40,979 bases of DNA from contig JBDKRF010000323.1 in NCBI GenBank assembly GCA_039683525.1, positions 1-40,979 on the forward strand, in the 5' to 3' direction. This DNA comes from Clostridiaceae bacterium. Its GTDB lineage: Bacteria > Bacillota > Clostridia > Christensenellales > CAG-138. The notes under the pieces are model-generated. The model was not told the origin of the DNA. It made no database searches and worked only from the letters and a program-made list of their open reading frames with translations. Below are positions 2,453-22,888 of this stretch, one piece after another. A program made the position numbers and the translations under genes. Numbering within the stretch: position 1 is the stretch's first letter; each line of letters starts with the position of its first letter.

Positions 2453-3595
2453 CTATTCCGCGCGGATGATGATATATTGTTCTGGCGTGCCGTTTTCGTC
2501 CCGTTCTGTAAGCTCCTCGAAAACAATTAACACCATCGAATCTTTGAGCAAGGAATTCAGGCTTTGCTGGTCGAAATTGGATGACGATGCGATCACGCCT
2601 TGGTCATCCACATAGTCGCCAATGAAAACCCCGCTAATCGTAAGTAATTGTTGTCCGGATTGTTGACACGTATAAATCATGATAGAACCAAATGTCCGGT
2701 TGGAAATCGGCTTTCCGTCTAAGTCAGTCAATTGAATGGTAAAATTATCGCTGTATATTCTTCCTTCTGCAATAAGAGCAGCAAACATAGGCATAGTTGC
2801 TTCCGACTCGCTGCTCGCAGATCTAACCGTAAACGGATTCGAAGTGTACGTCTCATATCCTTCCAAGCGAATCGAATAGACATACTCTCCGGGTACGACA
2901 TCGTCGATTTGCGCACATACTCCGTCGGCATCGGAGATTACTTCCCGGATATCCCCTGTGTCAAGATTCGTCAGTTGCACAGTCGCACCCGCTAGCGGCT
3001 GATCTCCCATCAAGGGTTCCAAAAAATTGATGATAACGCAGTCAGTCACAATGAACAAAAAATTGTTCGCTTCATATATTGATTCGGGGACTGGTCCGTC
3101 TGGCATGTCAATCGAATCGTTCGTCGGGATGATGTTTGCCAGATACTGGCAGTGCGATTCCACCGTCAGGGTGACGTCGCCGCAGACTGTTTGCGTTGGA
3201 GGCGCGCTCAAATTATCTTCCACAATCGGTTTGCCATCTTTGCCAGCGTCATCGGGCGTTTGTGCCGTATCTTGCTGAGTCGCCTGCGCAAGTTCGCCGG
3301 TTGGCGCAGGCGCTCTGCTGATCAGAAACACGATCACTCCAACCGCAACGGCCAAAAACGCGAACAGTACGACCGCGAGAATCTTGAATCCGCCCGCATT
3401 GCGAGGCTTTTCTTCGCTTCCGGTACGGGGGGCGCTTTTTCCGGCTGGCTGTGCATAGCGGTAGTTTGCGCCCGGCTGCGGCTCGGTTTGCGCTTGCTTT
3501 GCTGTGGGTTCCGGTGTCATCCGGAGTGCCCCGCAAAGCATACAGACGCTATTACCTTCCTCATTTAACGTTTCACACTTTTTACAAGACCACAT
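2453..3595 (-). CDS. Zinc-ribbon (RanBP2-type) single-pass membrane protein with a PEGA/CarboxypepD_reg-like ectodomain
   Basis: N-terminus MWSCKKCETLNEEGNSVCMLC fits W-x-C-x2-C-x3-N-x6-C-x2-C exactly. TM is FKILAVVLFAFLAVAVGVIVFLI. The C-terminal module (GDVTLTVESHCQYLANIIPTN, QLTNLDTGD, PGEYVYSIRLEGYETYTS) is paralogous to the C-terminus of 19578..21809. RBS GGAG lies upstream of the ATG. Confidence 0.8.
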   Translation of the reverse strand: MWSCKKCETLNEEGNSVCMLCGALRMTPEPTAKQAQTEPQPGANYRYAQPAGKSAPRTGSEEKPRNAGGFKILAVVLFAFLAVAVGVIVFLISRAPAPTGELAQATQQDTAQTPDDAGKDGKPIVEDNLSAPPTQTVCGDVTLTVESHCQYLANIIPTNDSIDMPDGPVPESIYEANNFLFIVTDCVIINFLEPLMGDQPLAGATVQLTNLDTGDIREVISDADGVCAQIDDVVPGEYVYSIRLEGYETYTSNPFTVRSASSESEATMPMFAALIAEGRIYSDNFTIQLTDLDGKPISNRTFGSIMIYTCQQSGQQLLTISGVFIGDYVDDQGVIASSSNFDQQSLNSLLKDSMVLIVFEELTERDENGTPEQYIIIRAE

Positions 3596-3830
3596 GTTTT
3601 CTCCACATGAATTTGAATTTTCTTATGTTTTCAGTTCTGTTGATAAAGCACTGTTTTAAATGAAGTTGATCCAACGTATCACGTCGCAGCGCATCAAGTG
3701 CCTCTTTGTCGCTGCTTACCATAGCGCGGATGCCGGAACGGATTGGCGGATAAACGATTCCTTGGGATCGAATAACATGAATTATTATTCGCTCCGGTGT
3801 TACGTTGGCCGAATCAAAGATGCCAGTACA

Positions 3831-4457
3831 TTACAATGAACGCGGCGCGTGGAACGCGTTGTTCTGTTTTTGCTCTTGATAACCAATTCTAGCGGAGGGA
3901 CAAAGACTGGTCATAGTTCTCAACAACCGCTGTCCTTCCTCCTCGCTCGCTACGGGAAGCGAGAAAAGTATCTGGTTTTTACAATGCACTTTGATTTCGA
4001 ATTGAACCGAATTTGATTTGGCAACGGTTATGCCATACGCCTTTGTCTTGTGGGTAATATTGTTTTGTTGAATATGCATCCAAACAACGTCGGCAGTTTT
4101 CCAAATATGCGCTGTTATACCCTGTCTATATGCAATAAAGTAGGAATGGAATCGAACATCAATCGCTTGAAAACCCGGTTGTGGCGTAAGTGCATCGATT
4201 GCTGCCAGCACGTTGTCCCGATTGCCGATAGAATCCACTTCTGCAAGAAACGCGTCTATACTCTTCTGACCATTTGCACCTTTCGCAGACAAAGCAGCAA
4301 TCAAAGCCGCTAATCCAAAGAATAAAATCCCCCAGATAATTCCCTGTTCACCAAGCGTGATCGCAAGTATGCCTGGAACCAAAAACAATGCCGCAAACAT
4401 GATACCGCATCCCGCACTAGATTTGGATGCTTTTTTAATTTCTGAGAACCAAGACAT
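3831..4457 (-). CDS. Two-TM membrane protein of unknown function (no zinc ribbon)
   Basis: Two hydrophobic helices (GCGIMFAALFLVPGILAITL and IIWGILFFGLAALIAALSA) followed by a roughly 140-aa soluble domain. Same strand and composition as the island. Confidence 0.55.
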   Translation of the reverse strand: MSWFSEIKKASKSSAGCGIMFAALFLVPGILAITLGEQGIIWGILFFGLAALIAALSAKGANGQKSIDAFLAEVDSIGNRDNVLAAIDALTPQPGFQAIDVRFHSYFIAYRQGITAHIWKTADVVWMHIQQNNITHKTKAYGITVAKSNSVQFEIKVHCKNQILFSLPVASEEEGQRLLRTMTSLCPSARIGYQEQKQNNAFHAPRSL

Positions 4458-4559
4458 AGAACGATCCCCTTATCAATTATTTCATTTCTTCAACGGTAGT
4501 AACAAAATCGATCGGAACAATATTACGTAATGGTCTATCAAGTGCCGCCCTGTCGTGTC

Positions 4560-5594
4560 TCACCCAAGCACCGATGCTGGATCCGATTGACGGATATACG
4601 AGTCCCTTGGATCAAACAACATATAGGATTGTCGTTTGATCTGATCCATCTCGTCAACAAAATCATAATAGCCTTCCGGCAACTCGTCCGTTTCAGAATA
4701 CAATTTAGGAAGTTCCCCATGAATTATTTCAAAGGATTCACCGTTGGGTAAGAAGCTCATCGCTCGATAATAATAATCATACGTCATCGAGAGAAATGGC
4801 ATCCCATAGCAGCAAATGAGAAGGTATGATTCCCCTTCGCTCGTATATATCCCCAACGCACAACCTTTCGGGTCAAAGTACGTCTCGGCGGTATAGATCG
4901 CAACAACGGAGTCATTCTGACAGGTAAAAACGGTTAAATTGATTATTTCCTTGCCATATGTATTGTCGAGGATAAGCATTTCTTCCTCACCATCATGCGT
5001 TAAGTCCGCTAAAAAGACATTATATTTGTTCGTCGCATTCTCATATACAGGGTCCTCTAGCTTGTTGTCCCATCCATAATTCTCCGCAAAATATGCATAA
5101 TAGAGCTCCTTCGCTCTTGATGATTGCTCTGTCCGCGGTTGCTGCTCGGGTGCTTCGGTCGGAAGATTCTGTTCGTTCTGTGGCTCTTGTTCGGTCTGCG
5201 GCTCTTGTGCAGACTGACTTGGTTGATATCCGCCAAGCAATCTCGGCAGCAACAGAACGGCTGCGATACAAACAATAGCGGCGGCAACAATCACCACCAC
5301 ATTGTTGTTTGACTTGGTCGAAGGATGAGACTTTCTGCTTTCCTCTGCGCCCGCGCAATATCGGCATACAGTTAACCCTGGCTCGAGTTGTCTTCCGCAT
5401 CTGCCGCAAAACTTTGGTGCACTCTCATGCCCGAACCTGTTTTGTTCGGTGTAGCCTGGTGCGGTGTAGCTAGGTTTAGTGAAGTTTGATGTTGTGTTGT
5501 TTGGTGTCGAGTGGTTTGGCGCGGCTGCCTTGCACATGCGACATGCCGTACACGTATCTGGGTTTTGACAACCGCAGGTCTTACATTTCCACAT
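4560..5594 (-). CDS. Double zinc-ribbon single-pass membrane protein, variable ectodomain A
   Basis: First ribbon MWKCKTCGCQNPDTCTACRMC is RanBP2-type. Second ribbon is CGRCGRQLEPGLTVCRYC. TM is VVVIVAAAIVCIAAVLLLP, followed by a QEPQ-repeat linker. The ectodomain contains LADLTHDGEEEMLIL. RBS AAAGGAAAG. Confidence 0.8.
   Translation of the reverse strand: MWKCKTCGCQNPDTCTACRMCKAAAPNHSTPNNTTSNFTKPSYTAPGYTEQNRFGHESAPKFCGRCGRQLEPGLTVCRYCAGAEESRKSHPSTKSNNNVVVIVAAAIVCIAAVLLLPRLLGGYQPSQSAQEPQTEQEPQNEQNLPTEAPEQQPRTEQSSRAKELYYAYFAENYGWDNKLEDPVYENATNKYNVFLADLTHDGEEEMLILDNTYGKEIINLTVFTCQNDSVVAIYTAETYFDPKGCALGIYTSEGESYLLICCYGMPFLSMTYDYYYRAMSFLPNGESFEIIHGELPKLYSETDELPEGYYDFVDEMDQIKRQSYMLFDPRDSYIRQSDPASVLG
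5160..5594 (-). repeat. Direct repeat copy 1 (about 435 bp, zinc ribbon-TM-linker cassette)
   Basis: Manual alignment to 6386..6820. I counted 12 mismatches in the 194 nt nearest the ATG and fewer further in, so roughly 94-97% identity. Confidence 0.85.
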
Positions 5595-5779
5595 TTTTTT
5601 TGCTTTCCTTTGTTTGCTTTTTGATTCAGCGTATGCGGCCTTGAGTGCTTTTTAAACCCACATTGACATGCAACATTGTAGCAACGCTTATTTGCTGGCT
5701 AAATGCACTCGCCGTTTTGTTCGGTAACGCTGGCGTAGAAGCAATACTTACATATTGCTTTTACATACATCGTCGCGTA

Positions 5780-6820
5780 TCATCCGTTTGCTCGCGAAAC
5801 AGAACACCACGTTTTTTCTGTAAAACTTCCATCCCCGTTGAGCCAATAGAATCGAAACACATAACCTTTATATTCAAATTCCGCATCGTACTCTCCGTAA
5901 TAATGCGACATACCTTGTTGCTTGAGCGACTCTACCCATGAAAGAAACTCTTCCGGATTGGAAGGATCAAAATCAGGATTTGTCTCAATCATGGATGGGG
6001 TAAGGACTGAGGGTTGATTGATCCATTCGCGATAAAGATTTGCAATACTAATCTCGACTGAATCGCAATCGTCACCGTCTCTGAATGTATCCATATCGTC
6101 CAATTGCCAATGCTCATACTCTACGTAAAAATCTTCGGATGTCCAGGTATACCAGTATTCAGTAGGAACGACAAGTTCGCCAAAATCAAAACGATGATCT
6201 TGAGAATGCTCAAAAATAATCCTGTTTGCTCCATTAACATCGAATAAAACTTGCGAAACTCCACCCAATGTTTGTTCGACTTCGGAAAATGAAAGCCCTA
6301 GAAAGCGAATATTGTCATCTAGGAGGATTGCATCACACAAGGAGGTCAGCGATTTCACCTCTTGTGCTTCTTCTTGCTTAGGAGCCGGAGGATTTTGCTC
6401 AAACTGCGGCTCTTGCACAGTCTGCGGCTCTTGTACAGACTGACTCGGTTGATACCCGCCAAGCAATCTCGGCAGTAACAGAACGGCTGCGATACAAACA
6501 ATAGCGGCTGCAACAATCACCACCACATTGTTGTTTGACTTTGTCGAAGGATGAGACTTTCTACTTTCCTCTGCGCCCGCGCAATATCGGCATACAGTTA
6601 ACCCTGGCTCGAGTTGTCTTCCGCATCTGCCGCAAAACTTTGGTGCACTCTCATGCCCGAACCTGTTTTGCTCGGTGTAGCCTGGTGCGGTGTAGATAGG
6701 TTTAGTGAAGTTTGATGTTGTGTTGTTTGGTGTTGAGTAGTTGGGCGCTGCTGCCTTGCACATGCGACATGCCGCACATGTATCCGGATTTTGACACCCG
6801 CAGGTCTTGCATTTCCACAT
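5780..6820 (-). CDS. Double zinc-ribbon single-pass membrane protein, variable ectodomain B (paralog of 4560..5594)
   Basis: The first roughly 145 aa are nearly identical to 4560..5594 (7 substitutions). The C-terminal roughly 200 aa are unrelated. RBS AAGGGAAA. Confidence 0.8.
   Translation of the reverse strand: MWKCKTCGCQNPDTCAACRMCKAAAPNYSTPNNTTSNFTKPIYTAPGYTEQNRFGHESAPKFCGRCGRQLEPGLTVCRYCAGAEESRKSHPSTKSNNNVVVIVAAAIVCIAAVLLLPRLLGGYQPSQSVQEPQTVQEPQFEQNPPAPKQEEAQEVKSLTSLCDAILLDDNIRFLGLSFSEVEQTLGGVSQVLFDVNGANRIIFEHSQDHRFDFGELVVPTEYWYTWTSEDFYVEYEHWQLDDMDTFRDGDDCDSVEISIANLYREWINQPSVLTPSMIETNPDFDPSNPEEFLSWVESLKQQGMSHYYGEYDAEFEYKGYVFRFYWLNGDGSFTEKTWCSVSRANG
6386..6820 (-). repeat. Direct repeat copy 2 (about 435 bp, zinc ribbon-TM-linker cassette)
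   Basis: Same alignment as copy 1. The copies are offset by 1226 bp in the same orientation. Confidence 0.85.
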
Positions 6821-6866
6821 TTTTCCGTTTCCCTTTGTACGTTCTAAATTGCTCGTTTCTATTACG

Positions 6867-7739
6867 CTAACTCATAATCAGGTTTGTGATCTTGCAGTTG
6901 ACGGTGTTCGAATAAGGATTGTATTGCTTCGGAGGTTGAACCGCTACCTCGGAAAAAGAGATCTCTCTCTCAAAAACTATATCGTATGTGCATTCTGAGT
7001 CGTTTTGTAATGTAATGTCCTGAATATAGACCCAGTCCGTTCCGTTCTCACGAACCCAAACCGACCATTGATCACCGATGATATCGCCGTTCGTTAGAAC
7101 TGACTTGAAAGTAAGTGTAAATCCGTAACAGTTCGTCACCATCGGCGTAACTTGATAAACCGGGCCAACATAGCTCTTCATGGTTCGGTTTCCGGACCAG
7201 CAAAACTCATATCTCTGATCGTTTCCTGTTGTGAGATAATAAGTTATGGTTATGTTCTTTCCATCCGTTCCGATGATCGGTATCGGTTCATTGTATCCCA
7301 GACCTGGATCAACCAATATGTTTCCGGCATTGATTGTGCCATCGGGCGAGCAAGTAACCCCTACATCGTTTGCTGCACATGACCAGGTCATATGATCAGC
7401 GTCATCCCCTGACAGGCCAAAATCGCTAGTGCTACATTGGTAAATTTGTCGGAAGTTCAATGTCAGATAAACCGGCTCAAAGGCTGTGACTGCTTGTGCA
7501 GATACAGTGCTCAGCACTGGGTTACCTCGTGTTTGATTGCTTAATAAGAATACGATAAGGCCAACGATCAGCGCCGCAATCGTGATCGCGATCACTTTAA
7601 AAGAGGCTGAGCACTTCTTCCGATTTGTTCTCTGTTTCTTTTCTTCCAACAACGTCTCAACTTCATACGCTTTTCCGCATACTATACACGCAGATTGTTC
7701 GTCTTCATTAATCGTTTCGCAACAGGTACATTTCCACAT
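6867..7739 (-). CDS. Zinc-ribbon (RanBP2-type) single-pass membrane protein, variable ectodomain C
   Basis: MWKCTCCETINEDEQSACIVC fits the RanBP2 spacing. TM is FKVIAITIAALIVGLIVFLL. The roughly 210-aa ectodomain is beta-rich. RBS AGAGGATGGG. Confidence 0.75.
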   Translation of the reverse strand: MWKCTCCETINEDEQSACIVCGKAYEVETLLEEKKQRTNRKKCSASFKVIAITIAALIVGLIVFLLSNQTRGNPVLSTVSAQAVTAFEPVYLTLNFRQIYQCSTSDFGLSGDDADHMTWSCAANDVGVTCSPDGTINAGNILVDPGLGYNEPIPIIGTDGKNITITYYLTTGNDQRYEFCWSGNRTMKSYVGPVYQVTPMVTNCYGFTLTFKSVLTNGDIIGDQWSVWVRENGTDWVYIQDITLQNDSECTYDIVFEREISFSEVAVQPPKQYNPYSNTVNCKITNLIMS

Positions 7740-7815
7740 TATCCCATCCTCTAATCCGATTCACACATCGAATCATCCTATTCCATATCTTTGCTTCGTC
7801 TTAATGAAAAGAACG

Positions 7816-9009
7816 TTATGGCATTTTCACAAATATGCAACCGACGGTAACATAAGCGTAGAAGCTCAACTCTGTTGCCACTCCATCAACGATTGTGACG
7901 ACGGGCATGCTTAGGCTAGAAAAGAACGATTCGAAGCACTTTTCCGGATGATCGACGAATAAGTAATACTGATCGAGCGCAGAACCAACTGCACCTTCAT
8001 CGTTATATACCGTTAACGTCGCTGGAACACGAAACTGAATGCGCTCTTCCAATAAATGCAGTGCCCAGTAACTTCCCCATCCGCTCGCATCTACCAGCAC
8101 ATAATCCCAACCTTGGTTTCTAAAATAATTCGCATGCGGAAACGCATCCACCTTAAGAATGAGACGCGTGTCCCGCCCGTATTCGATGATTTGATTCTCT
8201 TCATCAAACACATAAGCCTCTCCATTCGGGTCTGGATTGATCGACGCCCCATAATTAAAATTACTATCGTTCAGAACGTAATACCGTTCTGATTTCAGCT
8301 CGCCAATCTTCCCGGTTAGCAAGTCAACATATCCATTGGCAAGTATTGTCTGATACTCACTCTCGGAAAACACAACCTCTTTGTCATGTGTGATATATGC
8401 GTCAACGATGATCTCATTTGCCTGTTGGTCAAGATTTGCGGAAGCAACATAGACGCGCGCATCCGTATATGTAACGTTTGTCTTTGGTTGCTCGCTTTGC
8501 TGTGCGGGCGGAGTCTCTTGATCGGTTCCAGTTTCTTGCTCGTTTTCGACATTCGCAGCAGCCCCATCGTTACCGTCGTTCACGTTAGGGGCATCCGCGA
8601 TAGGAGCATCCGAGTTGTTCTCTTCAACTGGTGTTGACTCAACCTGCAAGGTATCGTTCGCGTGTACAGGCGAAATCATACCTGACACTGCGGCTACCCC
8701 AACTAAAAAAACGACCGCAGCAGCGGAGATTGTTGCGATCTTAACAACAGAACGCACACGATCGAATGAGGTTCCCTTCATTCGGTACGTCGTCGGTTCT
8801 GTAACACCCGGTCTGCAGTAGCGGCAAGTCGTCTCGCCTTCCATCAACGGTTTCCCGCATTTGCCACAATAGCGCTCAACTCGGTCCGTCTTAAAGACAG
8901 GGCGCTCTCTTCTAGGTTCGGCAACGCCTGATGATTTGCTTGCCCTGCACATGCGGCAACTCATAACGGGATCCGGGTTTTGACATCCGCAGGTTTTACA
9001 TTTCCACAT
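7816..9009 (-). CDS. Double zinc-ribbon single-pass membrane protein, variable ectodomain D
   Basis: The track ORF extends to 9045. I prefer the ATG at 9009, which gives MWKCKTCGCQNPDPVMSCRMC, because GAGAGGAA sits 7-8 nt upstream and the start then matches the paralogs. Second ribbon is CGKCGKPLMEGETTCRYC. TM is VVKIATISAAAVVFLVGVAAV. Confidence 0.75.
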   Translation of the reverse strand: MWKCKTCGCQNPDPVMSCRMCRASKSSGVAEPRRERPVFKTDRVERYCGKCGKPLMEGETTCRYCRPGVTEPTTYRMKGTSFDRVRSVVKIATISAAAVVFLVGVAAVSGMISPVHANDTLQVESTPVEENNSDAPIADAPNVNDGNDGAAANVENEQETGTDQETPPAQQSEQPKTNVTYTDARVYVASANLDQQANEIIVDAYITHDKEVVFSESEYQTILANGYVDLLTGKIGELKSERYYVLNDSNFNYGASINPDPNGEAYVFDEENQIIEYGRDTRLILKVDAFPHANYFRNQGWDYVLVDASGWGSYWALHLLEERIQFRVPATLTVYNDEGAVGSALDQYYLFVDHPEKCFESFFSSLSMPVVTIVDGVATELSFYAYVTVGCIFVKMP

Positions 9010-9080
9010 GTTACCATTCCTCTCGATACTCACGTCAATGCTCACCTAGATCGTCTCGCAATCTCAATCGTATTCATTCT

Positions 9081-10850: not shown

Positions 10851-10912
10851 TTCGTGTCCTCAATGAAACACAATCTATTTACATCTTGCGTTCCTTGTAT
10901 GAATCTGGACGA

Positions 10913-13614: not shown

Positions 13615-13654
13615 AGTTTTTCGTTCCTTTCTTATTTTGCAGTTTTGAGTTTAT

Positions 13655-15253
13655 CTATAGTTTCTTTGGGCGCTTAAAGTAGCTGTTCGCTTCGGGGTCG
13701 GTCGGCGTAGTCGAAGTTGCAGTGGGAGCGCTAATTGTAGATTTCAGTTTTGCTTTCGGTTCTAGAGGCTTATCCGCTGATTCCGTTGAAACTCGACCTG
13801 CTCCGCTTTCCGCTTCGGTGTGCATGGAGGATTTCATCCGTGGCGCAGGCGTCGATGTCGAGCTGCTTTTCTCTTTAGTAGACGCGCCCATGCTGGATTT
13901 CAGCGCCGGCTTTTTAAAGTGCCCATCCGTTACAATCCCGCTGCCCGAACGCTTTTCGTCTTCAGGAGTGTTCATATCGTGGGAGGTTTTCAGCCCACCC
14001 TTAACGAAACCGCCAGAGCCGGATTGGCCATTATCTGCATCGTACGTTCTGTGCCCCGTCTCTGACCCTCGGAAAACGGAGGTGGGCTTCTCTTCTCCAC
14101 ACTTTGCACAGAAATGAGCATCATTTCTTAGTCCGCAACGTGGGCATGTCCATCTACTTTCCGGAGGAGGAGGGGGAAACTCCAGACCATCAATTCTTTC
14201 TCCGCCCGATCCCCGCTTGCCTTTTTTCGCAATCAGAAGGTATATCCCACCTCCGAGGAGCGCAAGCAGCGCGACCCCTCCTGCAATCAGCAATACATTT
14301 GGTCCGCCTGTTGGTGTCTGATTTATGTCTGTTGATGAATCTGGCGGAACAACAGCTTCTTCCGGTGTCGCAGCGGGTTCTTCCACCGGAGCCTGGATCG
14401 GCTCTTCTGGAACTGCTTGCGGCACTTCAGGTGCAGGCGTCGATGTTTGCGGTACAGGCGTTGCCGCTTGGGTACCATCCGATTTTTCGTAAGCAATGCC
14501 TGAGTTGTTCAGAAAATCCATTGCATAATCGATATAAAGTGCAAAATTCGTGTTTTGTGCATCTATTGCTCCGCAAGAAACGATACCTACTACACATCCG
14601 TCCTCCGTGACTAACGGACCTCCTGAGTTTCCAGAGTTAATCGACGTATCAATTTGAATGTATTGATCATTTTCCAACGTACTGGATTCACGAGTCACAG
14701 AGCCTTTCGTTACAGTTATATAGTCAATTGAAGATGCCATTACATCTTCAGATGAGCCAACTTCAGCGGACCACGGAAATCCCATGGCGTATACAGTGTC
14801 TGTGACTGCTACTTTCTCGGCAGATTTCAATGTCAGTGCGCTGCGCGTCGTCGTTGGAGCATTTAGCTTTAGAATAGCCAAATCGACATTGTCGAATATC
14901 TTAACAACTTGACAATTCATCGTTAAGTCAGAGTTGTATATTGTATCTATGACCGCAACACAATAGATACTGGGGTCTTCTTCGTAATAATAATCACTAC
15001 CGTCATACGTATTAGCGGAACCAGCTACATGGGCATTGGTTACGATATATTCTACCGGCTTACCAGCTTCTCCAACAAAGAACCCTGTTCCCCAACCTAT
15101 GATTTCCCCGGTCTCTTTATCTACGACAGCAATCCGAACTACACCGTTCCGCGCATCCTGAACGGGGCTTGAAGCTTGAGCAGTAGCAAGCGGCAGCATG
15201 AGCAGCAGAACCAAAGCCACGAAGATTGCTTGAATTCTTTTCAACTTTTTCAT
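13655..15253 (-). CDS. Type I membrane-anchored trypsin-like (S1) serine protease with a cytoplasmic C-terminal zinc ribbon and Ser/Thr-rich tail
   Basis: Signal peptide MKKLKRIQAIFVALVLLLMLPLATAQA. Catalytic triad contexts are VTNAHVAG, NVDLAILKL and GNSGGPLV. A Pro-rich linker leads to TM LLIAGGVALLALLGGGIYLLIA. The ribbon is WTCPRCGLRNDAHFCAKCG. The roughly 150-aa S/T/K-rich tail ends in SYFKRPKKL. Confidence 0.85.
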   Translation of the reverse strand: MKKLKRIQAIFVALVLLLMLPLATAQASSPVQDARNGVVRIAVVDKETGEIIGWGTGFFVGEAGKPVEYIVTNAHVAGSANTYDGSDYYYEEDPSIYCVAVIDTIYNSDLTMNCQVVKIFDNVDLAILKLNAPTTTRSALTLKSAEKVAVTDTVYAMGFPWSAEVGSSEDVMASSIDYITVTKGSVTRESSTLENDQYIQIDTSINSGNSGGPLVTEDGCVVGIVSCGAIDAQNTNFALYIDYAMDFLNNSGIAYEKSDGTQAATPVPQTSTPAPEVPQAVPEEPIQAPVEEPAATPEEAVVPPDSSTDINQTPTGGPNVLLIAGGVALLALLGGGIYLLIAKKGKRGSGGERIDGLEFPPPPPESRWTCPRCGLRNDAHFCAKCGEEKPTSVFRGSETGHRTYDADNGQSGSGGFVKGGLKTSHDMNTPEDEKRSGSGIVTDGHFKKPALKSSMGASTKEKSSSTSTPAPRMKSSMHTEAESGAGRVSTESADKPLEPKAKLKSTISAPTATSTTPTDPEANSYFKRPKKL

Positions 15254-15285
15254 CCTATACCTCGCATTATTTCTCTTTGGTCAAA

Positions 15286-16269
15286 CTAGAACCCTTTGGG
15301 GCGCTTAAAGTATGAATCTGGAGTCCTAGCAGGTGGGGTTGTCCTCGGGGGTTCCGGCACAACTTCGCGAGAACCACTTGCAGATCCCCCTGTCGGCGTT
15401 TTTGATCGACCACAAATGGTGCAGAAGCTCATTGTGTTACGCGTTCCGCAACCTGTACAAACCCATGTGCCCGGTTCATCAGAGCGCACGGTCGTCCCTG
15501 TTCGAGTGTGCGTGGTGGTTTCCCTACCATAGGTTCTGCTTCTGTCGGCTGCTTCAATCTCGACATAATAGCCCGCAAGAGAGGTCATATAGTAGGGCAT
15601 AACATAGAAAACGCCCAAGATTCCCAGTGTCAGCAGGTTGAGCAGATGCCAGCCGATAAAGCTCAACTCCAGAACAAAGATGTCGAGTTTTCTCCCTTCC
15701 GTCATCTGAATGGATCGTTTTAGCGCCTGCTGTGAAGTCATCTCCGGATGATCCATGAGAATGAATGGAGTCAGGCAATACGAATAGACCTTGATCACGT
15801 TCATCACGGGAATGCAACCCCAAAGCGCACACCAAAGCAACCACCAAAGGGTGCCACCCAGCATGTGAGAGTAATTCTTGAAACCGAGATGCGCATCCTT
15901 CACTTCAATATGTTGCTTCCGGTAAAGTTTTACACCCGCGTACAGCTGACCGCACTGGAGAATCTGCAGATAAAAGATGCAGGCAAAGAAGAAACCGACC
16001 GGCCACGCTAGAGTGAAAATCAAGCCGATGACCAAGCCAACACCTATCTCAATCCCAAGCACGGCGAGCCATAACCGAACGGTCGTTTTGCTTTGCAGCG
16101 AAATTGCGATTTTCGCGTTCTGTTTGATGACGCTGCGCGTCGGAATTGGCGATGCTGAATATGGCAGCGATCCGCTTCCATAAGTGCTGGTAGAAGCAGC
16201 TTCTCTTGCACCGCAATGTGTGCAGAACATGCTGTCATTTCTCGTTCCGCATGACGGACAAGTCCACAT
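15286..16269 (-). CDS. DUF975-like polytopic membrane protein flanked by N- and C-terminal zinc ribbons
   Basis: N-terminal ribbon MWTCPSCGTRNDSMFCTHCG and C-terminal ribbon WVCTGCGTRNTMSFCTICG. The DUF975-like core includes LSFIGWHLLNLLTLGILGVFYVMPYY. The protein ends in SYFKRPKGF. Confidence 0.75.
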   Translation of the reverse strand: MWTCPSCGTRNDSMFCTHCGAREAASTSTYGSGSLPYSASPIPTRSVIKQNAKIAISLQSKTTVRLWLAVLGIEIGVGLVIGLIFTLAWPVGFFFACIFYLQILQCGQLYAGVKLYRKQHIEVKDAHLGFKNYSHMLGGTLWWLLWCALWGCIPVMNVIKVYSYCLTPFILMDHPEMTSQQALKRSIQMTEGRKLDIFVLELSFIGWHLLNLLTLGILGVFYVMPYYMTSLAGYYVEIEAADRSRTYGRETTTHTRTGTTVRSDEPGTWVCTGCGTRNTMSFCTICGRSKTPTGGSASGSREVVPEPPRTTPPARTPDSYFKRPKGF

Positions 16270-16294
16270 ATCATTATCCTCCTGTTTGTTATCT

Positions 16295-17092
16295 TTATCG
16301 CATTGTCGATTTTAAGCGAGACTTGGGCTGCTCTTCCTGTGTGCCTCGGGCGGGTTTTGAACCCTTCTCAACCATCAGGCTATATTCTTCCCGTGCCGGT
16401 ACCACCGGCTGGGTTTCCGGCTTTCTCGGGGTCTCGAAACCGCCCTTTTTAAACAGGACATTTTCCCGCTCAATCAGTTTCTTGACATACATGGTTGCGA
16501 AAAACACGCAGAGCGCATAACAAAGCACAATCAGCAGCGGAACAACGTTATGGTCAGCATTGCCGAAGTAGATGAAGCCGCAATAGATCACAATCGCGAA
16601 CAGGCTCACCCACGATATGGTGACGGGGAGATTTCTCTTGCGACTGTCAAATGAAATCAGAATGAAGATTGCCGGTAGGATCGCAAAAACCAGCAGGACA
16701 AGCGAGCAAACCTGCTCAATCGGGCCAACAATCCCCAATGCCATGTTGTAGACAGTGTAATACGTGTAATAATTGACAAATGGCTGCGCAAAGAGCACAA
16801 ATGCGAGAAAAACGCACAAGATGATGCCCGCTTTGAAGAAATTCGCGGTTTGGGTCAGATCGTCATATTTCTCTTGCAGGACAGCCGCGTCTGTCGAGAT
16901 TTTGATGACATCAGATTTCGTTTTTGCATCGTTCATCGATGTATCCGTATATCGCTTCTTCTCTACAAAAGTCTCTCTCCTGATACAGGTGTCCTCAACC
17001 GGTACAACTATTGCGGGCTTCTCCGCTGCGCAGACAACACAGAAGCGATCCGAATCTTCATTCTTGCTCTCACATGTTTTGCAGTCCCACAT
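16295..17092 (-). CDS. Zinc-ribbon (RanBP2-type) protein with a four-TM membrane domain
   Basis: The track start at 17107 is a TTG. The ATG at 17092 gives MWDCKTCESKNEDSDRFCVVC, with AGGGAG 7 nt upstream. About four hydrophobic helices follow a roughly 70-aa linker. Confidence 0.75.
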   Translation of the reverse strand: MWDCKTCESKNEDSDRFCVVCAAEKPAIVVPVEDTCIRRETFVEKKRYTDTSMNDAKTKSDVIKISTDAAVLQEKYDDLTQTANFFKAGIILCVFLAFVLFAQPFVNYYTYYTVYNMALGIVGPIEQVCSLVLLVFAILPAIFILISFDSRKRNLPVTISWVSLFAIVIYCGFIYFGNADHNVVPLLIVLCYALCVFFATMYVKKLIERENVLFKKGGFETPRKPETQPVVPAREEYSLMVEKGSKPARGTQEEQPKSRLKSTMR

Positions 17093-17138
17093 ATATATCT
17101 CCCTCAATTCATATCAAATCCCGATATATCTTCACTCA

Positions 17139-17852
17139 CTAATTTTTCTCGATCAATTCCCATTGCGCAAACAGCGTTAAGTCGCCAGACAGTTCCATAT
17201 CAAACACCGCATTGGCTGAGTATTGTCCGCCTTTTCCATCCTGGCGCGTGTTCCATCCGAGAAACCGAAACGTCTCCGTGTCCTGGAACAGCGGGAGATG
17301 AACATCTTCCCCCTTCGAAGGAGTGATATCTTTTGGCGTCGGGGGAAATTTTGCGGTATCGGCAGCTTTCGGAAGATTGAGGTCAAAGTGAATAACGGCG
17401 CTGGCAGTTGTTATTGCCGGGGTTGACTCCGCAGAGGTCGTCGGGGTCGATACGGCACTTTTCTGGTCGGTTGCATCAGTCTGAGTAGTCGCCATCAAGC
17501 TTGACAGCTTCTCCAGCTTAGCAATCTCCGCGCGATTCTTCGCGATGCCAATTGCGCAAAACGCCGTACAAAGCAGTGTGAACACCGCAAGAATGACCGC
17601 ATAGCGGAACATCGTGGCTTTCATCTGCTTTTTCGTCGGCAGGTTCCGTACATAATCAGCCAAGCGATCGAACGCATCCCGTAAACTCGTGTCAACCATT
17701 ACAGTTGGGCCTTCCGGCTTGGTCTCCACGCCGCGAATCGGTACGACCGGTGGTCGATAGTTGTATCTTGCGGCAGCGTTTGTGGGCTTACCGCAGTACT
17801 TGCAATATTCGACCATGTGTTCAATCGATTCCCCACAGTTTGGACAAATCAT
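17139..17852 (-). CDS. Zinc-ribbon single-pass membrane protein with a Listeria/Bacteroides-repeat (Flg_new-like) ectodomain
   Basis: MICPNCGESIEHMVEYCKYCG is a generic Cys4 ribbon without the W/N signature. TM is FRYAVILAVFTLLCTAFCAIGIA. The C-terminus FRFLGWNTRQDGKGGQYSANAVFDMELSGDLTLFAQW resembles the InlB B-repeat / Flg_new motif. Confidence 0.75.
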   Translation of the reverse strand: MICPNCGESIEHMVEYCKYCGKPTNAAARYNYRPPVVPIRGVETKPEGPTVMVDTSLRDAFDRLADYVRNLPTKKQMKATMFRYAVILAVFTLLCTAFCAIGIAKNRAEIAKLEKLSSLMATTQTDATDQKSAVSTPTTSAESTPAITTASAVIHFDLNLPKAADTAKFPPTPKDITPSKGEDVHLPLFQDTETFRFLGWNTRQDGKGGQYSANAVFDMELSGDLTLFAQWELIEKN

Positions 17853-18008
17853 GAATCTACCCCCGATTTTTATATTGTTGCTTTTTTATATTTCAGCTAT
17901 GAAAGACGTTTTTTTCTTTGGACAACTATAAGGTAACGTATTTTTCACCGCCCTGCGTTTTTCGTGTTGATACAGCGCAGAAAATGTAACGAAATGCAGC
18001 TTCATTTT

Positions 18009-18713
18009 TCAAGAGCGAGCGCCAATCATATCGGCTAAGAATTTGAAATCATACTCAAAAAGTCCGCCTCTATCATCAAAAAACTTCTCGCGATAAACGT
18101 TGTACCATTCCTCTGATATTCTGTGCCAACTAGATTCATCGGGTGTTACCAATATCATTTTCCAGTATCCATTATCACCAACACTTTTGTTTTGAATTTC
18201 GTCATTCCAACTATTTGCAAGTATATCGAATGAACAAGGAGTCTTAATTGGGCAGGAGTTTTCCATATTGTTGCCTATTGGACTGGTTTTTGACTTTGCC
18301 AATACAATGATTCCTTCTCTGATACGATGTTGAAATTCTAATGAATCTTGTTTGTAATTTTGTAAAATGTTCATTGCACACCATATTGCTTCTAGGCCGC
18401 TACACCGCGGGTCAACATTTCTTCCTCCACCGATATATTCGATCCCTTGCAGAGCTTCCTGAAAATGTGATTCTTCTTCTGGAAAATGAAATGGCCCCCG
18501 AAGTTCGAGCGATTTCTCTCCATCGCACTTGCAATTTCTGAACAATATCAGAAAAAACTTTATATTACTTTCCGCCGTTAAAATATCTCTTTTAAGATCT
18601 TCGACCATAATTCTAGCAGCACTGGTTGCGTAATCAACGAAATCCTGTGAGTATGCTTGCGTTCGAGAAGTAGCCTCAACACAAAAAACCAGATTTAAGT
18701 CAACAGCGCTCAT
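18009..18713 (-). CDS. Second cytoplasmic vWA-like protein with a degenerate MIDAS
   Basis: DLNLVFCVEATSRT aligns with DLTFCIDATRSM of 12934..13614, but has Glu for the first Asp and a shifted Ser. GGGRNVDPRCSGLEAIWCAM corresponds to GGGDDPEDGLEALAYAI. No signal peptide. Confidence 0.65.
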   Translation of the reverse strand: MSAVDLNLVFCVEATSRTQAYSQDFVDYATSAARIMVEDLKRDILTAESNIKFFLILFRNCKCDGEKSLELRGPFHFPEEESHFQEALQGIEYIGGGRNVDPRCSGLEAIWCAMNILQNYKQDSLEFQHRIREGIIVLAKSKTSPIGNNMENSCPIKTPCSFDILANSWNDEIQNKSVGDNGYWKMILVTPDESSWHRISEEWYNVYREKFFDDRGGLFEYDFKFLADMIGARS

Positions 18714-18733
18714 ATCTGCTTATCCATCTCCAT

Positions 18734-19453
18734 TTATCTCCGAATCAACAATCCACTTTCGAAGCGTTTGATCGCTTCCTTCATCTGCGCCGCATACTGT
18801 CGTCCAATCGGAAGTTTAATATTCTGCTCGAGCGTGAATTCATTCGCCTGATATCGCGTTACTTTTCGCAGATTCACATGAATGCTTCTATGGCACTGCA
18901 CAAAGTCGAGTCCGCAAGCAGAATCGACAATCTCTTGCGGTAGTTGATACGTCTCGATGGTGTCATCCTTCGTTACGATATGCGTCTTGCGCTGTACGCG
19001 TTCGAGATACAGCACCTCGCGGCAGGGGACATAGATCTTCTCGCTGTTTGCTGTAACCACAAAAAAAGAATGCTCCATAGCTGCTAAGTTGACCACCGAT
19101 TTTTGAATCGCGGTCACCAAGTGCAGTGGAACATATTCTTTCGGCAGAATGCATGTGTGATTCATCTCATAATATTCAGGGAAAATTCGATTTCTTTCGC
19201 TGATTAATACGATCTGACAAGCTTCATTCTTTTTTGTCATCTCTCTTGCGATAAATACGCCGTTGTGCGTTCCCAGTTCCCGGCTGATGATTGCAATATC
19301 GAACGCCTCGGTGCGCAGAAATACATCGGAAATCATCCACTCCGGGTCCGTATAGGTCGCAACGGTCGCAAACGAAACCTCACGGATCTGCCTGAGGAGT
19401 CTACAAATATATTCGATGTAATCTGCCTGCGTTTCACAAATGGCTATTCGCAT
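18734..19453 (-). CDS. LytTR-family DNA-binding regulator with a pseudo-receiver domain
   Basis: The C-terminus (VPCREVLYLERVQRKTHIVTKDD ... FVQCHRSIHVNLRKV) is LytTR-like. The N-terminus has receiver-like topology. However, the acidic pair reads ICETQ rather than DD, and the expected phospho-acceptor position reads DIAIISREL rather than D..LDI. Confidence 0.7.
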   Translation of the reverse strand: MRIAICETQADYIEYICRLLRQIREVSFATVATYTDPEWMISDVFLRTEAFDIAIISRELGTHNGVFIAREMTKKNEACQIVLISERNRIFPEYYEMNHTCILPKEYVPLHLVTAIQKSVVNLAAMEHSFFVVTANSEKIYVPCREVLYLERVQRKTHIVTKDDTIETYQLPQEIVDSACGLDFVQCHRSIHVNLRKVTRYQANEFTLEQNIKLPIGRQYAAQMKEAIKRFESGLLIRR

Positions 19454-19577
19454 GCAAAAAAGATCCCCCGCCTTGTTCTTGCGAAATCTACAACCAACGA
19501 GTCATATTACTGTAAATCATCTTACCGCTGTTATTTCTTACTTGGTTTTCTTTTGCGATACCAGGTCAACTTGCTCC

Positions 19578-21809
19578 CTAATTTGCACGAATGAGAATGC
19601 ATTGACCAGCTATAGTGCCTTGACTCCAATTGAGGCTGTCGTCAAACGAAATAATCGCGATACTCCCTTTTTTTAACGAGTATAGGTTTGTCGGCGCCCA
19701 CCCATCGGAAGTAATCATTCCGTCCTCGTCAATTCTATCGCCTAGTGTCATCATGCTATAGTTATTTAGTCCCTCCGTACTTTCACAAGCAATGAGTGAA
19801 ATTATATTAAACTTCTTTGACGCAACCGGATTCCCCGCAAGATCCGTGATTTGAATCTGGAATCCATTGCTGAAGACACTACCCTCTTCTATTAAACTGT
19901 AGGAAGCCCAAACGTATTCGTTATCCGCACCCGATACGTAATTCAACTCAAATGTTGGAGAGGTGTATGTAATATATCCGGCTTTTGACACGGTATACCG
20001 ATACTCTCCGGAAGGCAGGTCGGTAAAAGGATCAATCAGCGAATCGGAATTTTGCGTTCTCTCCCATGTTGTCTGCGTATCTAGGTTGGTCAGTTGTATC
20101 AATGCGCCGGGCAGCATCGTTCCCAACCCGATACCATCCTTATTGATCAATCTACAATCGTCGATTGAAACATGCACGGTATTTGCATCATATGTCATTC
20201 CAGCAATGTAAGCATCGCTCTGGTTAATCGTTTCATTTGTAGGAATCAGTTTCGCCAGATAATCTCCGGTTGACTCAACCGTCAGCGTAACATCACCAAT
20301 CTGAATTCCGTTATTATTGTTTTCCTCCACGGTCCTCTCTGATGTATTCATCGCAAGCTTGAAATCCCCACCGGATTCATCCTGAATAAACCGCACATCG
20401 GTGATGCAGATGTTGATATCATCAGATTGTTCCCAAATTCCGATTCGACCGTCCTGATAGAGTGCGGTTGTTTCCCAGCCGCCAAATGCAACTGCGATGA
20501 TGGATTGATTATCCTTGAGTTCATTTACCTTTGCTGGCTTCATGAAAGATGCGAATGCCTCTGTTAATAAGCATCCCGATGTGTAATATCCATATCCATA
20601 TACGCTTCCGTTCTCATCTAGAAGGTATAGACCCGAGATGCCACCATTTTGATAAATAAATGAGCCCAGTTCAGAGTAATCCGTTGGTTGCGAATTATTT
20701 TCGTAGATCGATAAACTCCCTTTCTCATCCAGCCACGCAAAATAGGCGGATCTTTCAACTTGAACCGACTCAAACAGTGACCAGTTTGACGAAGTGGTCG
20801 CGAAGTCTATGGGAGCTGGTGTATTACTGTATTTCTTGGAACCACTCGTAAGGAGATTTGTTCCCCAATAATAGAATTCGCCACTCGTTGCTTGAGCAAC
20901 AACCATGCTATATCCCGGTTCGAAGTCATTGTAGATGCACTGGATTTTTCGAATCGGCGGTAAACCTTCAATTGCCGTTGAAGTTTCAAACTGATTGTCA
21001 TCCGCTCCCAATCCGAAAACGCCATATTTCCCGTTTCCAAAAACCCAGACCTGTCCTTGGGCGTCGAGCGCAAGCAGTCCTAAGTCCATTGAGTCAATGA
21101 TTTCTAGATCAATGATATTCTCCAATCCCGAAATCTTTTGCAACCCGTAATTTAGTGTTTTATTCTCCCAATAAAGCTCCGTCCACCAGACTGAGCCATC
21201 TTTTTTTACAACAAACAACCGCGCCGACCAATCAACGCCTGCCGTGTATATTTCCGCGGCATCCGTTATATCGCTCGGCCGCGCGACATAGTCGTTTTGA
21301 TCCCAAATCCATACGGTACCGGAAGCATCGATCGCAGCGCCCCAACGAAACTCATCAACCACGTCGGCTGTGCCTGAATATATCGAATCAATCACGATTT
21401 GATGATCATCAACGGAGGATGAAACGGGTTGACCGGCATCGTTCATTTGCGGAGCCATCGTTTCCATTGGGATTGCAGGAGGCTCCGTTACTTGCGGTAC
21501 GCCTTGATACGCCGATTGTCTGGAGACGAGCACAACGATTGCGACAACTGCAGCCAACAAGAGAACACACAACACACCAATCAGAATCGCTATGCGGTTC
21601 TTCTTGCGCGGTTCTCTGTCTTTTTGAGAATTGTTCTCGTCCGCATCTTGTCGACTCTGAGAGGATTGTTGATTGTTTGCTGAAAAGCTATTTTTATTTG
21701 AAGTGCGTTGCTGTTCTTCTTTCACCGCTCTCGGTTCGTCGCATAAAGCACAAGTGCTTTGTTCATCCTCATTGAGTGTTTCGCATCTCTTGCAGGTCCA
21801 CATGCACAT
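19578..21809 (-). CDS. Zinc-ribbon (RanBP2-type) single-pass membrane protein with an RCC1-like beta-propeller and a PEGA-like C-terminal module
   Basis: The track ORF reaches 21893. GGGAG lies just upstream of the ATGs at 21809 and 21803, giving M(CM)WTCKRCETLNEDEQSTCALC. TM is IAILIGVLCVLLLAAVVAIVVLV. RCC1-like blades include DASGTVWIWDQ, KKDGSVWW and DAQGQVWVFGNGKYGVFGLG. The C-terminal module is paralogous to 2453..3595. Confidence 0.8.
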   Translation of the reverse strand: MCMWTCKRCETLNEDEQSTCALCDEPRAVKEEQQRTSNKNSFSANNQQSSQSRQDADENNSQKDREPRKKNRIAILIGVLCVLLLAAVVAIVVLVSRQSAYQGVPQVTEPPAIPMETMAPQMNDAGQPVSSSVDDHQIVIDSIYSGTADVVDEFRWGAAIDASGTVWIWDQNDYVARPSDITDAAEIYTAGVDWSARLFVVKKDGSVWWTELYWENKTLNYGLQKISGLENIIDLEIIDSMDLGLLALDAQGQVWVFGNGKYGVFGLGADDNQFETSTAIEGLPPIRKIQCIYNDFEPGYSMVVAQATSGEFYYWGTNLLTSGSKKYSNTPAPIDFATTSSNWSLFESVQVERSAYFAWLDEKGSLSIYENNSQPTDYSELGSFIYQNGGISGLYLLDENGSVYGYGYYTSGCLLTEAFASFMKPAKVNELKDNQSIIAVAFGGWETTALYQDGRIGIWEQSDDINICITDVRFIQDESGGDFKLAMNTSERTVEENNNNGIQIGDVTLTVESTGDYLAKLIPTNETINQSDAYIAGMTYDANTVHVSIDDCRLINKDGIGLGTMLPGALIQLTNLDTQTTWERTQNSDSLIDPFTDLPSGEYRYTVSKAGYITYTSPTFELNYVSGADNEYVWASYSLIEEGSVFSNGFQIQITDLAGNPVASKKFNIISLIACESTEGLNNYSMMTLGDRIDEDGMITSDGWAPTNLYSLKKGSIAIISFDDSLNWSQGTIAGQCILIRAN

Positions 21810-22866: not shown

Positions 22867-22888
22867 CCAATTCTCCCCCAGATTCACG

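Follow-up and report, generated by a model that had tools for sequence, protein, structure and literature searches.

A vWA, PP2C and Ser/Thr kinase triad encoded among zinc-ribbon-tailed membrane proteins in a clostridial gene island

The window analysed here is a stretch of 40,979 nucleotides (contig JBDKRF010000323.1 of assembly GCA_039683525.1, forward strand) from a Clostridiaceae bacterium of the Christensenellales, and its subject is an island of 17 open reading frames (ORFs), all on the minus strand, at 2453-21893. Within the island, a soluble triad composed of a von Willebrand factor A (vWA) protein, a PP2C-family phosphatase and a Hanks-type Ser/Thr kinase is encoded among membrane proteins that bear small Cys4 zinc ribbons on their predicted cytoplasmic side. 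The pairing of such triads with ribbon-bearing membrane proteins recurs in four phyla, and on balance we think it somewhat probable that the products form a membrane-associated Ser/Thr phospho-signalling assembly, built as a hub with spokes.

Genes of the island

An original prediction, made from the letters of the window, had described 17 co-directional and tightly packed genes, a count that the ORF listing reproduced. Intergenic gaps are mostly 20-76 nt, with five of 102-235 nt and one pair of genes overlapping by 22 nt, and the island is AT-richer than its surroundings (GC content 0.41-0.50 against 0.55-0.63 in the flanks). Probable true starts lie at 21809 or 21803 for g17, at 17092 for g13 and at 9009 for g6; the g17 ORF reaches 21893, and its probable start is M29 or M31, which yields MWTCKRC. 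Scans of the island for promoters and terminators gave counts at the level of shuffled sequence (33 vs 29; 22 vs 19) and are therefore uninformative on operon structure, and an Rfam search of the window returned no match.

Profile hidden Markov model (HMM) searches matched most of the domain labels that had been predicted, the exceptions being the ribbons, Flg_new, the PP2C and the second vWA protein, as described below. Comparisons across genomes drew on nine loci of metagenomic origin and 80 from the genomes of GTDB species, with our own ORF calls and HMM labels; the sources are mainly Christensenellales, Oscillospiraceae, Ruminococcus and Lachnospiraceae, with some Succinivibrionaceae, Actinomycetes and Microscillaceae. 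Two short tail peptides are referred to throughout: M1, [KR]-[LI]-[KR]-S-T-M, which lies 20-30 residues upstream of a C-terminal M2 or at the end of the protein, and M2, aromatic-[KRH]-[KR]-P/A-x2-3-[LF], at the extreme C-terminus and often with an Asp before the end. The genes of the island are as follows, TM denoting transmembrane.

g17, 19578-21809, minus strand: ribbon, TM helix, RCC1-like beta-propeller and a C-terminal beta-sandwich module common to g1
g16, 18734-19453, minus strand: LytTR DNA-binding regulator with a receiver domain (LytTR 5.9e-16, Response_reg 2.9e-4)
g15, 18009-18713, minus strand: second vWA paralogue with a degenerate metal site (ExTxR; the Asp of WTD is gone)
g14, 17139-17852, minus strand: ribbon (Zn_ribbon_3 1e-4), TM helix and small ectodomain (Flg_new 0.0034, sub-threshold)
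g13, 16295-17092, minus strand (ORF to 17107): ribbon (Zn_ribbon_RanBP 3e-5), four TM helices and cytoplasmic C-terminus RLKSTMR (M1)
g12, 15286-16269, minus strand: ribbon (residues 4-19), polytopic DUF975 (1.5e-25), second ribbon (271-286) and C-terminus SYFKRPKGF (M2, YFKRPKGF)
g11, 13655-15253, minus strand: signal peptide, outside trypsin-like protease, TM helix (315-343), ribbon (370-385) and long disordered tail
g10, 12934-13614, minus strand: stand-alone vWA domain of 226 aa (VWA_4 3.8e-9), a predicted adaptor
g9, 11905-12894, minus strand: divergent Ser/Thr phosphatase of the PP2C family, extended at the C-terminus by two helices
g8, 10913-11926, minus strand: soluble Hanks-type Ser/Thr kinase (Pkinase 2.6e-29) with a Pro-rich tail ending VWHKPRVLN (M2)
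g7, 9081-10850, minus strand: ribbon, disordered tail of about 200 aa, TM hairpin, EssC/EccC stalk and degenerate DUF (D0) domain
g6, 7816-9009, minus strand (ORF to 9045): two ribbons, TM helix and an ectodomain without family match
g5, 6867-7739, minus strand: ribbon, TM helix and a Cys-rich ectodomain without family match
g4, 5780-6820, minus strand: two ribbons, TM helix and ectodomain; the first 143 residues are common to g3 and the remainder unrelated
g3, 4560-5594, minus strand: two ribbons, TM helix and ectodomain, with a 'handle' paralogous to that of g4
g2, 3831-4457, minus strand: two-TM protein without ribbon, with a weak DUF6709 match and C-terminus AFHAPRSL (M2-like)
g1, 2453-3595, minus strand: ribbon, TM helix and CarboxypepD_reg/PEGA-like beta-sandwich (6.3e-10), paralogous to the C-terminal half of g17

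The predicted core of vWA, PP2C and kinase, together with a second vWA protein, was recovered in all its parts, the PP2C and the second vWA indirectly, through homologues, a structural model and paralogy. The vWA domain of g10 keeps an intact MIDAS (metal-ion-dependent adhesion site; D18-x-T20-x-S22, GGG and D136), of which D18, T20, S22 and D136 are invariant in 41 family members, and a census of the family found DxTxS in 53 of 64. The vWA identity of g15 comes solely from its 27% full-length identity to g10 (E 6e-16). A Pfam search with g9 itself gave no match; its homologues bear PF13672, the family profile finds PstP at 2e-4, and the family motifs DGxGG, GDSR, TDG and DDxT are conserved, with D38, G39, D150, D214, D257 and D258 invariant. 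The AlphaFold2 (AF2) model of g9, with a mean predicted local distance difference test score (pLDDT) of 88, retrieved tPphA, PstP and Stp1 in Foldseek searches (E 1e-12 to 5e-11; target-normalised template-modelling score 0.69-0.76). As modelled, g9 has the PP2C (PPM) fold with its metal-binding Asp motifs, which are present as catalytic motifs in 54 of 65 family members, and phosphatase activity is predicted.

Direct reading of g8 gives HADLKPSN, a non-RD catalytic loop, DFD in place of DFG, and LAPE, so that the kinase catalytic residues are present. The same features run through the family, with H[AGS]D (non-RD) in 53/56 kinases and DFD in 52/55, and the kinases form a distinct non-RD/DFD clade. 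A second class of C-termini among the family kinases (GLVINMKK and NGLSRFMKK; RLRINLDGR in actinobacteria) resembles M1 minus its Ser/Thr.

The remaining soluble protein, g16, has Ser56 at the phospho-acceptor position of its receiver domain (aligned with CheY D57 and AgrA D59) and E7/T8 as its acidic pair, by our own alignment to CheY and AgrA reference sequences. Ser also occupies the acceptor position in two related loci (L001, L003), Asn in another (L041) and Asp only in L024; a PDB sequence search with the receiver domain found no match, and no histidine kinase is encoded in the island. An Asp-less receiver fits control by Ser/Thr phosphorylation, for which the g8 kinase may be the candidate.

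Among the membrane proteins, the PEGA-like, RCC1, trypsin-like, DUF975 and EssC-like modules that had been predicted were matched by profile, and the Flg_new label of g14 stayed below threshold. In g17, matches to RCC1 (1.4e-7), WD40_RLD (3e-16) and CarboxypepD_reg (9e-4) were found, and its C-terminal 240 aa are 37% identical to g1, which thus corresponds to the ribbon, TM and beta-sandwich portion of g17 minus the propeller. The protease domain of g11 matches Trypsin_2 at 7.8e-23; its tail contains three copies of M1 and ends in SYFKRPKKL (M2, YFKRPKKL). The ribbon-less g2 was found only in the window's relatives L001 and L092.

The protein g7 matches the EssC models TIGR03928 (1.1e-46, model positions 9-407 of 1296) and TIGR03924 (1.7e-39), and ends at residue 589, without the ATPase domains D1-D3 and without a Walker A motif. 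That it might be a pseudogene was ruled out by its length, which is kept at about 590 aa in all 11 homologues found database-wide, at 43-96% identity. Its AF2 model is of low confidence (pLDDT 49, and below 50 over residues 25-215), and the top Foldseek matches obtained from it, to the Bacillus subtilis T7b core with DUF (9qks, 8e-9) and to ESX-3/5 EccC (6sgz, 3e-7), serve only as backing for the match at 1e-46. The disordered tail (residues 25-215; window 10200-10780) holds three FHPARF-like repeats, GFHPARF, AFHPARF and WFHIASF, all invariant in homologues down to 29% identity.

Within the window, one cytoplasmic handle is joined to differing outer modules. The proteins g3 and g4 align with 142 of 164 residues identical and then show no similarity, and the corresponding direct DNA repeat (5160-5597 vs 6386-6823), which is 92-94% identical in two aligned blocks, spans the ribbons, tether and TM helix of both genes. 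The DNA of the first ribbon of g6 (8941-9012) is 81% identical to the g3/g4 equivalent.

Ribbons, tail peptides and the triad across genomes

A scan of the 17 island proteins for CxxC-x6-22-CxxC found 15 ribbons in 11 proteins, exactly the number predicted. Residue shuffles of the same proteins (2000 trials) gave a mean of 0.05 motifs and a maximum of two, and the motif is absent from the 21 window genes outside the island (0/21). All window ribbons score under the Pfam gathering cut-off (E 3e-5 to 0.07), and those of partners at other loci are often significant (Zn_Ribbon_1 in 39, DZR in 23 and Zn_ribbon_RanBP in 16 of 118; best E 2e-25). The consensus across partners, (M)W-x-C-x2-C-[GE]-x2-N-x6-(F)C-x2-C-G, fits the RanBP2 pattern; its spacer is 10 residues long in 111 of 156. 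Anti-sigma factor ribbons (zf-HC2) were ruled out by the wrong Cys/His pattern and by the lack of any general sigma factor linkage.

The 127 partners carry the ribbon at the N-terminus (100), at the C-terminus (24) or at both ends (3), joined to the membrane segment by a tether with a median length of 61 aa that is Pro-rich and hydrophobic-poor, and therefore disordered. Counts of Lys and Arg within 15 residues of the anchor were higher on the ribbon side in eight of the nine window proteins scored (2-7 vs 0-1; g1 and g3 were left out of this set), the ninth, g14, being tied at 4 vs 4. Over all partners the ribbon side averages 3.74 against 1.22 on the other side and is the higher in 105 of 127 (p 4e-18), a signal present for both N- and C-terminal ribbon classes. 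By the positive-inside rule the ribbon side is thus predicted to be cytoplasmic, in agreement with the original prediction, whose further claim that the ribbon is a functional tag rather than a chance feature is supported by the shuffles, the topology and the co-occurrence described next.

Linkage was examined in a non-redundant set of 79 loci, each with one or more triad genes that could be recognised; most of these loci were found through the PP2C. That PP2C clade is small (54 clusters in a 90%-identity database); searched against 1.84 billion representatives, its profile found 1031 sequences at E<=1e-30 and 2301 at E<=1e-3, and the family amounts to about 1000 clusters at 50% identity. With Z for a ribbon and TM gene, and V, P and K for vWA, PP2C and kinase, the recurring gene string is Z-V-P-K-Z-Z, with the variants V-K-Z-Z-P and, in actinobacteria, P-K-V-x-Z; the order V-P-K holds in the window and in most of the 79 loci. 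Ribbon and TM genes make up 48 of 181 genes (27%) at a distance of one from a triad gene and 46 of 150 (31%) at two, then fall to 15% at three, 9% at four and 2% (4/206) at six to seven, with none beyond. At distances up to three they number 115 of 470, against 11 of 538 at five or more (odds ratio 15.5), and all 11 of the far genes lie at distances of five to seven, at the ends of long arrays. Ribbon neighbours stand on the PP2C strand in 116 of 118 cases; when loci are collapsed by PP2C identity, a ribbon gene within three genes is found in 39 of 54 clusters at 70% and in 30 of 40 at 50%. At six loci the kinase and phosphatase genes are separated by ribbon genes. The predicted co-occurrence of ribbon genes with the triad is thereby confirmed in these 79 loci.

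With the ribbon masked, the 127 partners fall into 100 BLAST clusters, and as judged by sequence they share the tag only, their remaining modules being non-homologous. Ectodomains and modules at other loci include DUF975, LRR/BspA, S8 and S1 (trypsin) proteases, PASTA, RCC1, DUF5050 and DUF805, and many are without family match.

The tail peptides extend the link between kinase and partners. M2 stands at the end of 22 of 63 kinases and, close to triads, of 16 of 151 ribbon proteins, and three of 538 distant genes encode it; examples at other loci are FFRPDDFD, PWFRRAGDL and NFHKPSAL. M1 occurs in 18 of 779 near genes, spread over 13 loci, and in none of the 538 far ones. An unbiased k-mer scan, run in a reduced alphabet over the C-terminal 40-mers, ranked [KR][ST][ST]M (13 vs 0), aromatic-[KR][KR]P (11 vs 0) and [KR][LIV][KR][ST][ST] (13 vs 0) at the top. 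At three ribbon-less loci, divergently transcribed membrane proteins have long Pro-rich tails ending in RIKSTMG, and M1 may therefore be the more general handle.

Other proteins combine the same elements in different ways. In several Ruminococcus-type loci, soluble proteins that have two to five ribbons, lack a TM segment and end in M1 and M2 are encoded directly upstream of the vWA gene (L014 8701-9222; L036 5328-5966; L030 2117-2791; L018 5500-5892; L026 8734-9246) and may represent a free adaptor form of the tag; in some of them the second knuckle reads CxxC...CxC. Three family PP2Cs (P0075, P0079 and P0167) have C-terminal ribbons and M2-like ends (LWNKPGNSDLD, TFYRPNDLD and LYFAGDDDL), and about ten are membrane-anchored in the order ectodomain, TM helix, PP2C (including P0151, P0169, P0182, P0191, P0193 and P0205).

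The evolution of the island sets the core apart from the array. Among relatives, the triad and LytTR proteins are conserved at 83-97% and the ribbon partners at 30-86%, and the core order from g17 to g4 is kept in differing genomic surroundings. In a metagenomic contig with the same flanks (L001), most genes match the window at 95-99% identity, and nucleotide identity, 97-99% elsewhere, drops to 58-72% in three patches (21500-20500, 15000-14500 and 13000-12000) that correspond to the RCC1 propeller ectodomain of g17 (66-72%), the protease domain of g11 and the PP2C g9. The window PP2C is 83-85% identical to alleles of more distant relatives against 67% to L001, which argues that the patches are allele swaps, that is, replacements by recombination. 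Four relatives (L092-L094 and L003) have, between their g13 and g12 homologues, one more gene (about 185-200 aa) that the window lacks, its L003 copy bearing a C-terminal ribbon behind an N-terminal membrane anchor. Some relatives are without g15 or have it in shortened form, so that the edges of the array are fluid in gene content. On plasmid pHAU01 of Herpetosiphon aurantiacus (L090, Haur_5138-5140) a related triad lies between a transposase and a resolvase, and the triad of L005 adjoins a resolvase. A Calothrix plasmid (L091) has a related vWA(-PP2C)-kinase module without ribbon partners; both plasmid hosts are filamentous bacteria.

Known systems and the proposed mechanism

The closest bacterial kind is the TerY-P triad, which unites a TerY-like vWA protein, a PP2C and a Ser/Thr kinase (Anantharaman, Iyer & Aravind 2012, as covered in PMC11090510). 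The original prediction had applied that label, and it stands for the architecture and for the shared gene order of vWA, PP2C and kinase, as well as for predicted activity of all three, mobility of the module and its recurrence with changing partners, and a zinc ribbon within the system. It does not stand at the level of sequence: the PADLOC TerY-P models found no match to g9, g10 or g15 at E<=10, and tblastn of g10 against 72,556 plasmids returned six records, none of them TerY. NCBIfam gave no match for the vWA or PP2C, and neither PADLOC nor NCBIfam supplied a name for most ribbon proteins. TerY-P kinases bear a C-terminal zinc ribbon or OB fold (PMC11090510), whereas g8 has two Cys and no ribbon, no family kinase in the loci fits the ribbon pattern, and here the ribbons are on neighbouring membrane proteins. 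The island, moreover, has no ter, restriction or CoCoNuT genes nearby. What appears new relative to TerY-P is the shift of the ribbon from the kinase to an array of non-homologous membrane proteins, together with the common tail peptides. As the original prediction had supposed, we found no paper that describes a triad coupled to such an array, the 2012 Ter paper being covered here through PMC11090510.

The closest tested analogue is archaeal. In Sulfolobus acidocaldarius, ArnA and ArnB form a switch for archaellum repression that Hanks kinases and a phosphatase control (PMC6509490, PMC12852372), and ArnA, with a RanBP2-type ribbon (CxxC-x10-CxxC) and a disordered tether of about 70 residues, has been co-crystallised with the vWA protein ArnB (PMC12852372). 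The likeness lies in the ribbon type and spacing, the disordered tether, a vWA partner with intact MIDAS and the kinase and phosphatase control, and it is one of function and not of family membership. ArnA, in contrast, is soluble and has an FHA domain, for which no island protein gave a match; the phosphatase there is PP2A and not PP2C, and there is one ribbon protein in place of an array of membrane proteins. The docking role proposed for the ribbons has an experimental precedent in this pair, which the original prediction did not cite and which strengthens the mechanism proposed below.

In actinobacteria, GAP1-N2 GTPase-centric systems include a theme of kinase, PP2C and stand-alone vWA with a ribbon or TM segment attached, read as an assembly regulated close to the membrane (Kaur, Burroughs, Iyer & Aravind 2020, PMC7159879). 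Actinobacterial relatives of the island PP2C likewise show P-K-V followed by a ribbon-TM gene. There, however, the ribbon or TM segment is on the kinase, the core is a DO-GTPase/GAP1 pair of which the island has no counterpart, and the array of ribbon partners is absent. A more general likeness is to the PASTA kinases PrkC and StkP with PrpC and PhpP, and to PpkA, PppA and Fha1, the threonine phosphorylation pathway of the type VI secretion system (T6SS), in which envelope input reaches a Hanks kinase and PP2C; phosphorylation of disordered juxtamembrane segments has been described in receptor-kinase and T6SS pathways (PMC12636448, PMC12077195). In those pathways sensor and kinase are one polypeptide with an FHA reader, whereas here they are split, with many interchangeable membrane partners per soluble kinase.

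We regard the island as a real system and a variant of the vWA/PP2C/kinase triads; from its parts, their topology and co-occurrence, the common motifs and the fusions we infer docking, tail phosphorylation and an output. The hub would be the soluble trio in its fixed order, consisting of a vWA adaptor with intact MIDAS, a PP2C and a constitutively competent non-RD Hanks kinase. The spokes would be the unrelated membrane proteins, comprising putative sensors or binders (RCC1, beta-sandwich and Flg_new-like), a surface protease, polytopic proteins and the ATPase-less EssC-like stalk, each presumed to expose one or more cytoplasmic RanBP2-type ribbons on a Pro-rich disordered tether, often with M1 or M2 added. 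A ribbon, an M2 tail or both would dock on the hub, with the vWA protein, possibly through its MIDAS, as the likeliest receptor by analogy with the binding of the vWA protein ArnB by the ArnA ribbon; the kinase, carrying the same M2 tail, would be recruited to the same receptor. The kinase would then phosphorylate Ser/Thr in the tails, and the PP2C would reset the state. Phosphorylation may alter the activity or assembly of the membrane partners and, in this lineage, may also feed the Asp-less LytTR regulator. The original prediction had seen the tails as phosphorylation handles, of which the composition of the ribbon-to-membrane linkers gives no sign, with S+T at 14% vs 12%, barely enriched; Ser/Thr-rich linkers are accordingly set aside, and the short tail motifs, M1 foremost, suggest themselves as better candidate sites.

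Several observations tell against such an assembly. In 21 of the 79 loci there is no ribbon or motif neighbour, some of these being short contigs, Bacteroidota or poorly called high-GC loci, and the triad on pHAU01 is without ribbon partners. The near-absence of Ser/Thr enrichment in the linkers is unhelpful to it, as is the bare vWA domain of g10, since in ArnB beta-sandwich and helical-bundle domains form the ribbon interface and hold the phosphosites; a search of the PDB with the vWA profile gave weak integrin-beta matches and neither ArnB nor ArnE at E<=1. No more than a minority of partners carry M1 and M2, whose definitions were refined post hoc on the same data; the k-mer scan is only borderline after correction for 337 tests, and a strict FHPARF-like motif, [FW][HK]x[AP][RK], tried as a general tail signal, proved lineage-specific, so that the looser M2 was adopted. 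A LytTR gene is present in only seven loci, and output through LytTR is therefore not general. ORF calling and TM prediction, finally, were our own crude methods.

The same components might serve in conflict with phages or other microbes, as a TerY-P-like switch with the ribbon membrane proteins acting as diversifying envelope sensors or effectors, a purpose that differs from, and is compatible with, the mechanism just outlined; we think it rather unlikely. TerY-P-like triads confer phage protection (Gao et al. 2020, cited in PMC11090510), and the best PADLOC matches of the kinase are defence kinases (mad6 2e-31, PD-T4-6 1e-24), whereas the vWA and PP2C drew no PADLOC match at the cut-off given above and neither a nuclease nor a toxin nor another recognisable effector is encoded. 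The conserved core with its fast-evolving, non-homologous periphery and the allele-swapped patches in PP2C, protease and propeller between near-identical strains speak for conflict, yet gut-bacterial surface proteins diversify for many reasons. Mobility is suggested by the varied genomic contexts of the cluster, by the transposase or resolvase genes beside related triads and by the GC content of the island below that of its flanks; the viral contigs scanned, on the other hand, contained no relatives, and the flanks (a shikimate operon and an arylsulfotransferase) hold no known defence genes. A transcription regulator and a protease would suit signalling equally well.

Two further readings can be given far less weight. 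In one, g7 would be the central machine of a type VII-like secretion or membrane-assembly device, the ribbon a client or targeting tag, and the kinase and phosphatase a replacement for FHA-based EssC regulation. The protein does share the TM hairpin, stalk helix and degenerate DUF/D0 domain of EssC/EccC, by profile as by fold, with its ribbon and disordered tail sitting where EssC has FHA domains, and TerY-like vWA genes are reported to flank EssC-like ATPases (PMC11090510). This role is very improbable because g7 is without all three ATPase domains and Walker A and is confined to seven loci, all or nearly all from close relatives, when the triad-ribbon link is general; profile searches of the window, besides, found no WXG100, EsaA, EssA, EssB or other type VII secretion genes. 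The other reading denies any functional coupling and has N-terminal ribbons, common on Firmicute membrane proteins, accumulate by chance beside a kinase operon. Ribbon-TM-ectodomain proteins do exist away from such loci, one example being a weak N-terminal match to TcaA, and the window ribbons fall below Pfam thresholds, but chance is largely refuted, and now hardly credible, in view of the 15-fold enrichment beside the triad with none beyond seven genes in the same contigs, the shared strand, the recurrence across PP2C clusters and phyla, the ribbon genes inserted between kinase and phosphatase genes, the tail motifs common to kinase and partners, and the PP2C-ribbon fusions.

A phospho-signalling assembly at the membrane thus remains the reading we prefer, and it permits a wider and more doubtful proposal: that the island exemplifies a widespread 'split receptor' system, in which one soluble hub serves an interchangeable, fast-diversifying membrane array recognised by its ribbon, by RLKSTM and by aromatic-basic-Pro peptides, perhaps for envelope surveillance against phages or competitors. 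Its logic would be that of eukaryotic immunity and signalling by receptors with cytosolic kinases, and it would provide a bacterial counterpart to the archaeal ArnA/ArnB ribbon-vWA switch. In the usual view, a bacterial Hanks kinase joins a single sensor to a single kinase in one fusion; a hub reading numerous non-homologous membrane partners via a small common tag would, if true, be a different wiring principle. It would also give a role to the very common N-terminal ribbon and TM architecture of Firmicute membrane proteins, and would link TerY-P-type triads to the only structurally solved ribbon-vWA interaction. The family centres on uncultured Clostridia of the gut and rumen (Christensenellales, Oscillospiraceae, Ruminococcus and Blautia), in which the system may control surface properties, sensitivity to phages or interaction with the host. 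Reagents that can be tested immediately are provided by the two tail peptides and the MIDAS site.

Flanking genes

The genes around the island are of the housekeeping kind. On one side, the island adjoins a shikimate and aromatic amino-acid operon followed by a BcsA-like family-2 glycosyltransferase-PilZ gene and, on the other, a lipoprotein and an arylsulfotransferase. The aromatic amino-acid pathway (22438-30632, minus strand), directly upstream of the island and on the same strand, is complete and co-directional, encoding DAHP synthase, prephenate dehydrogenase, DHQ synthase, EPSP synthase, chorismate synthase, chorismate mutase-prephenate dehydratase, a fused shikimate dehydrogenase-kinase and a type II dehydroquinase. 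Among named organisms, the flanking AroE-AroK protein has its nearest relatives in Christensenella and Christensenellaceae (about 72% identity), and the host is therefore placed in the Clostridia as an uncultured, Christensenellales-like member. A 620-aa ORF without Pfam match (30998-32860, minus strand) lies beside the BcsA-like gene (33031-35340, minus strand), whose product is a candidate polysaccharide synthase controlled by cyclic di-GMP through its PilZ domain. At the opposite edge of the window, an arylsulfotransferase (ASST) family protein is encoded at 39-1652 on the plus strand (E 5e-74).

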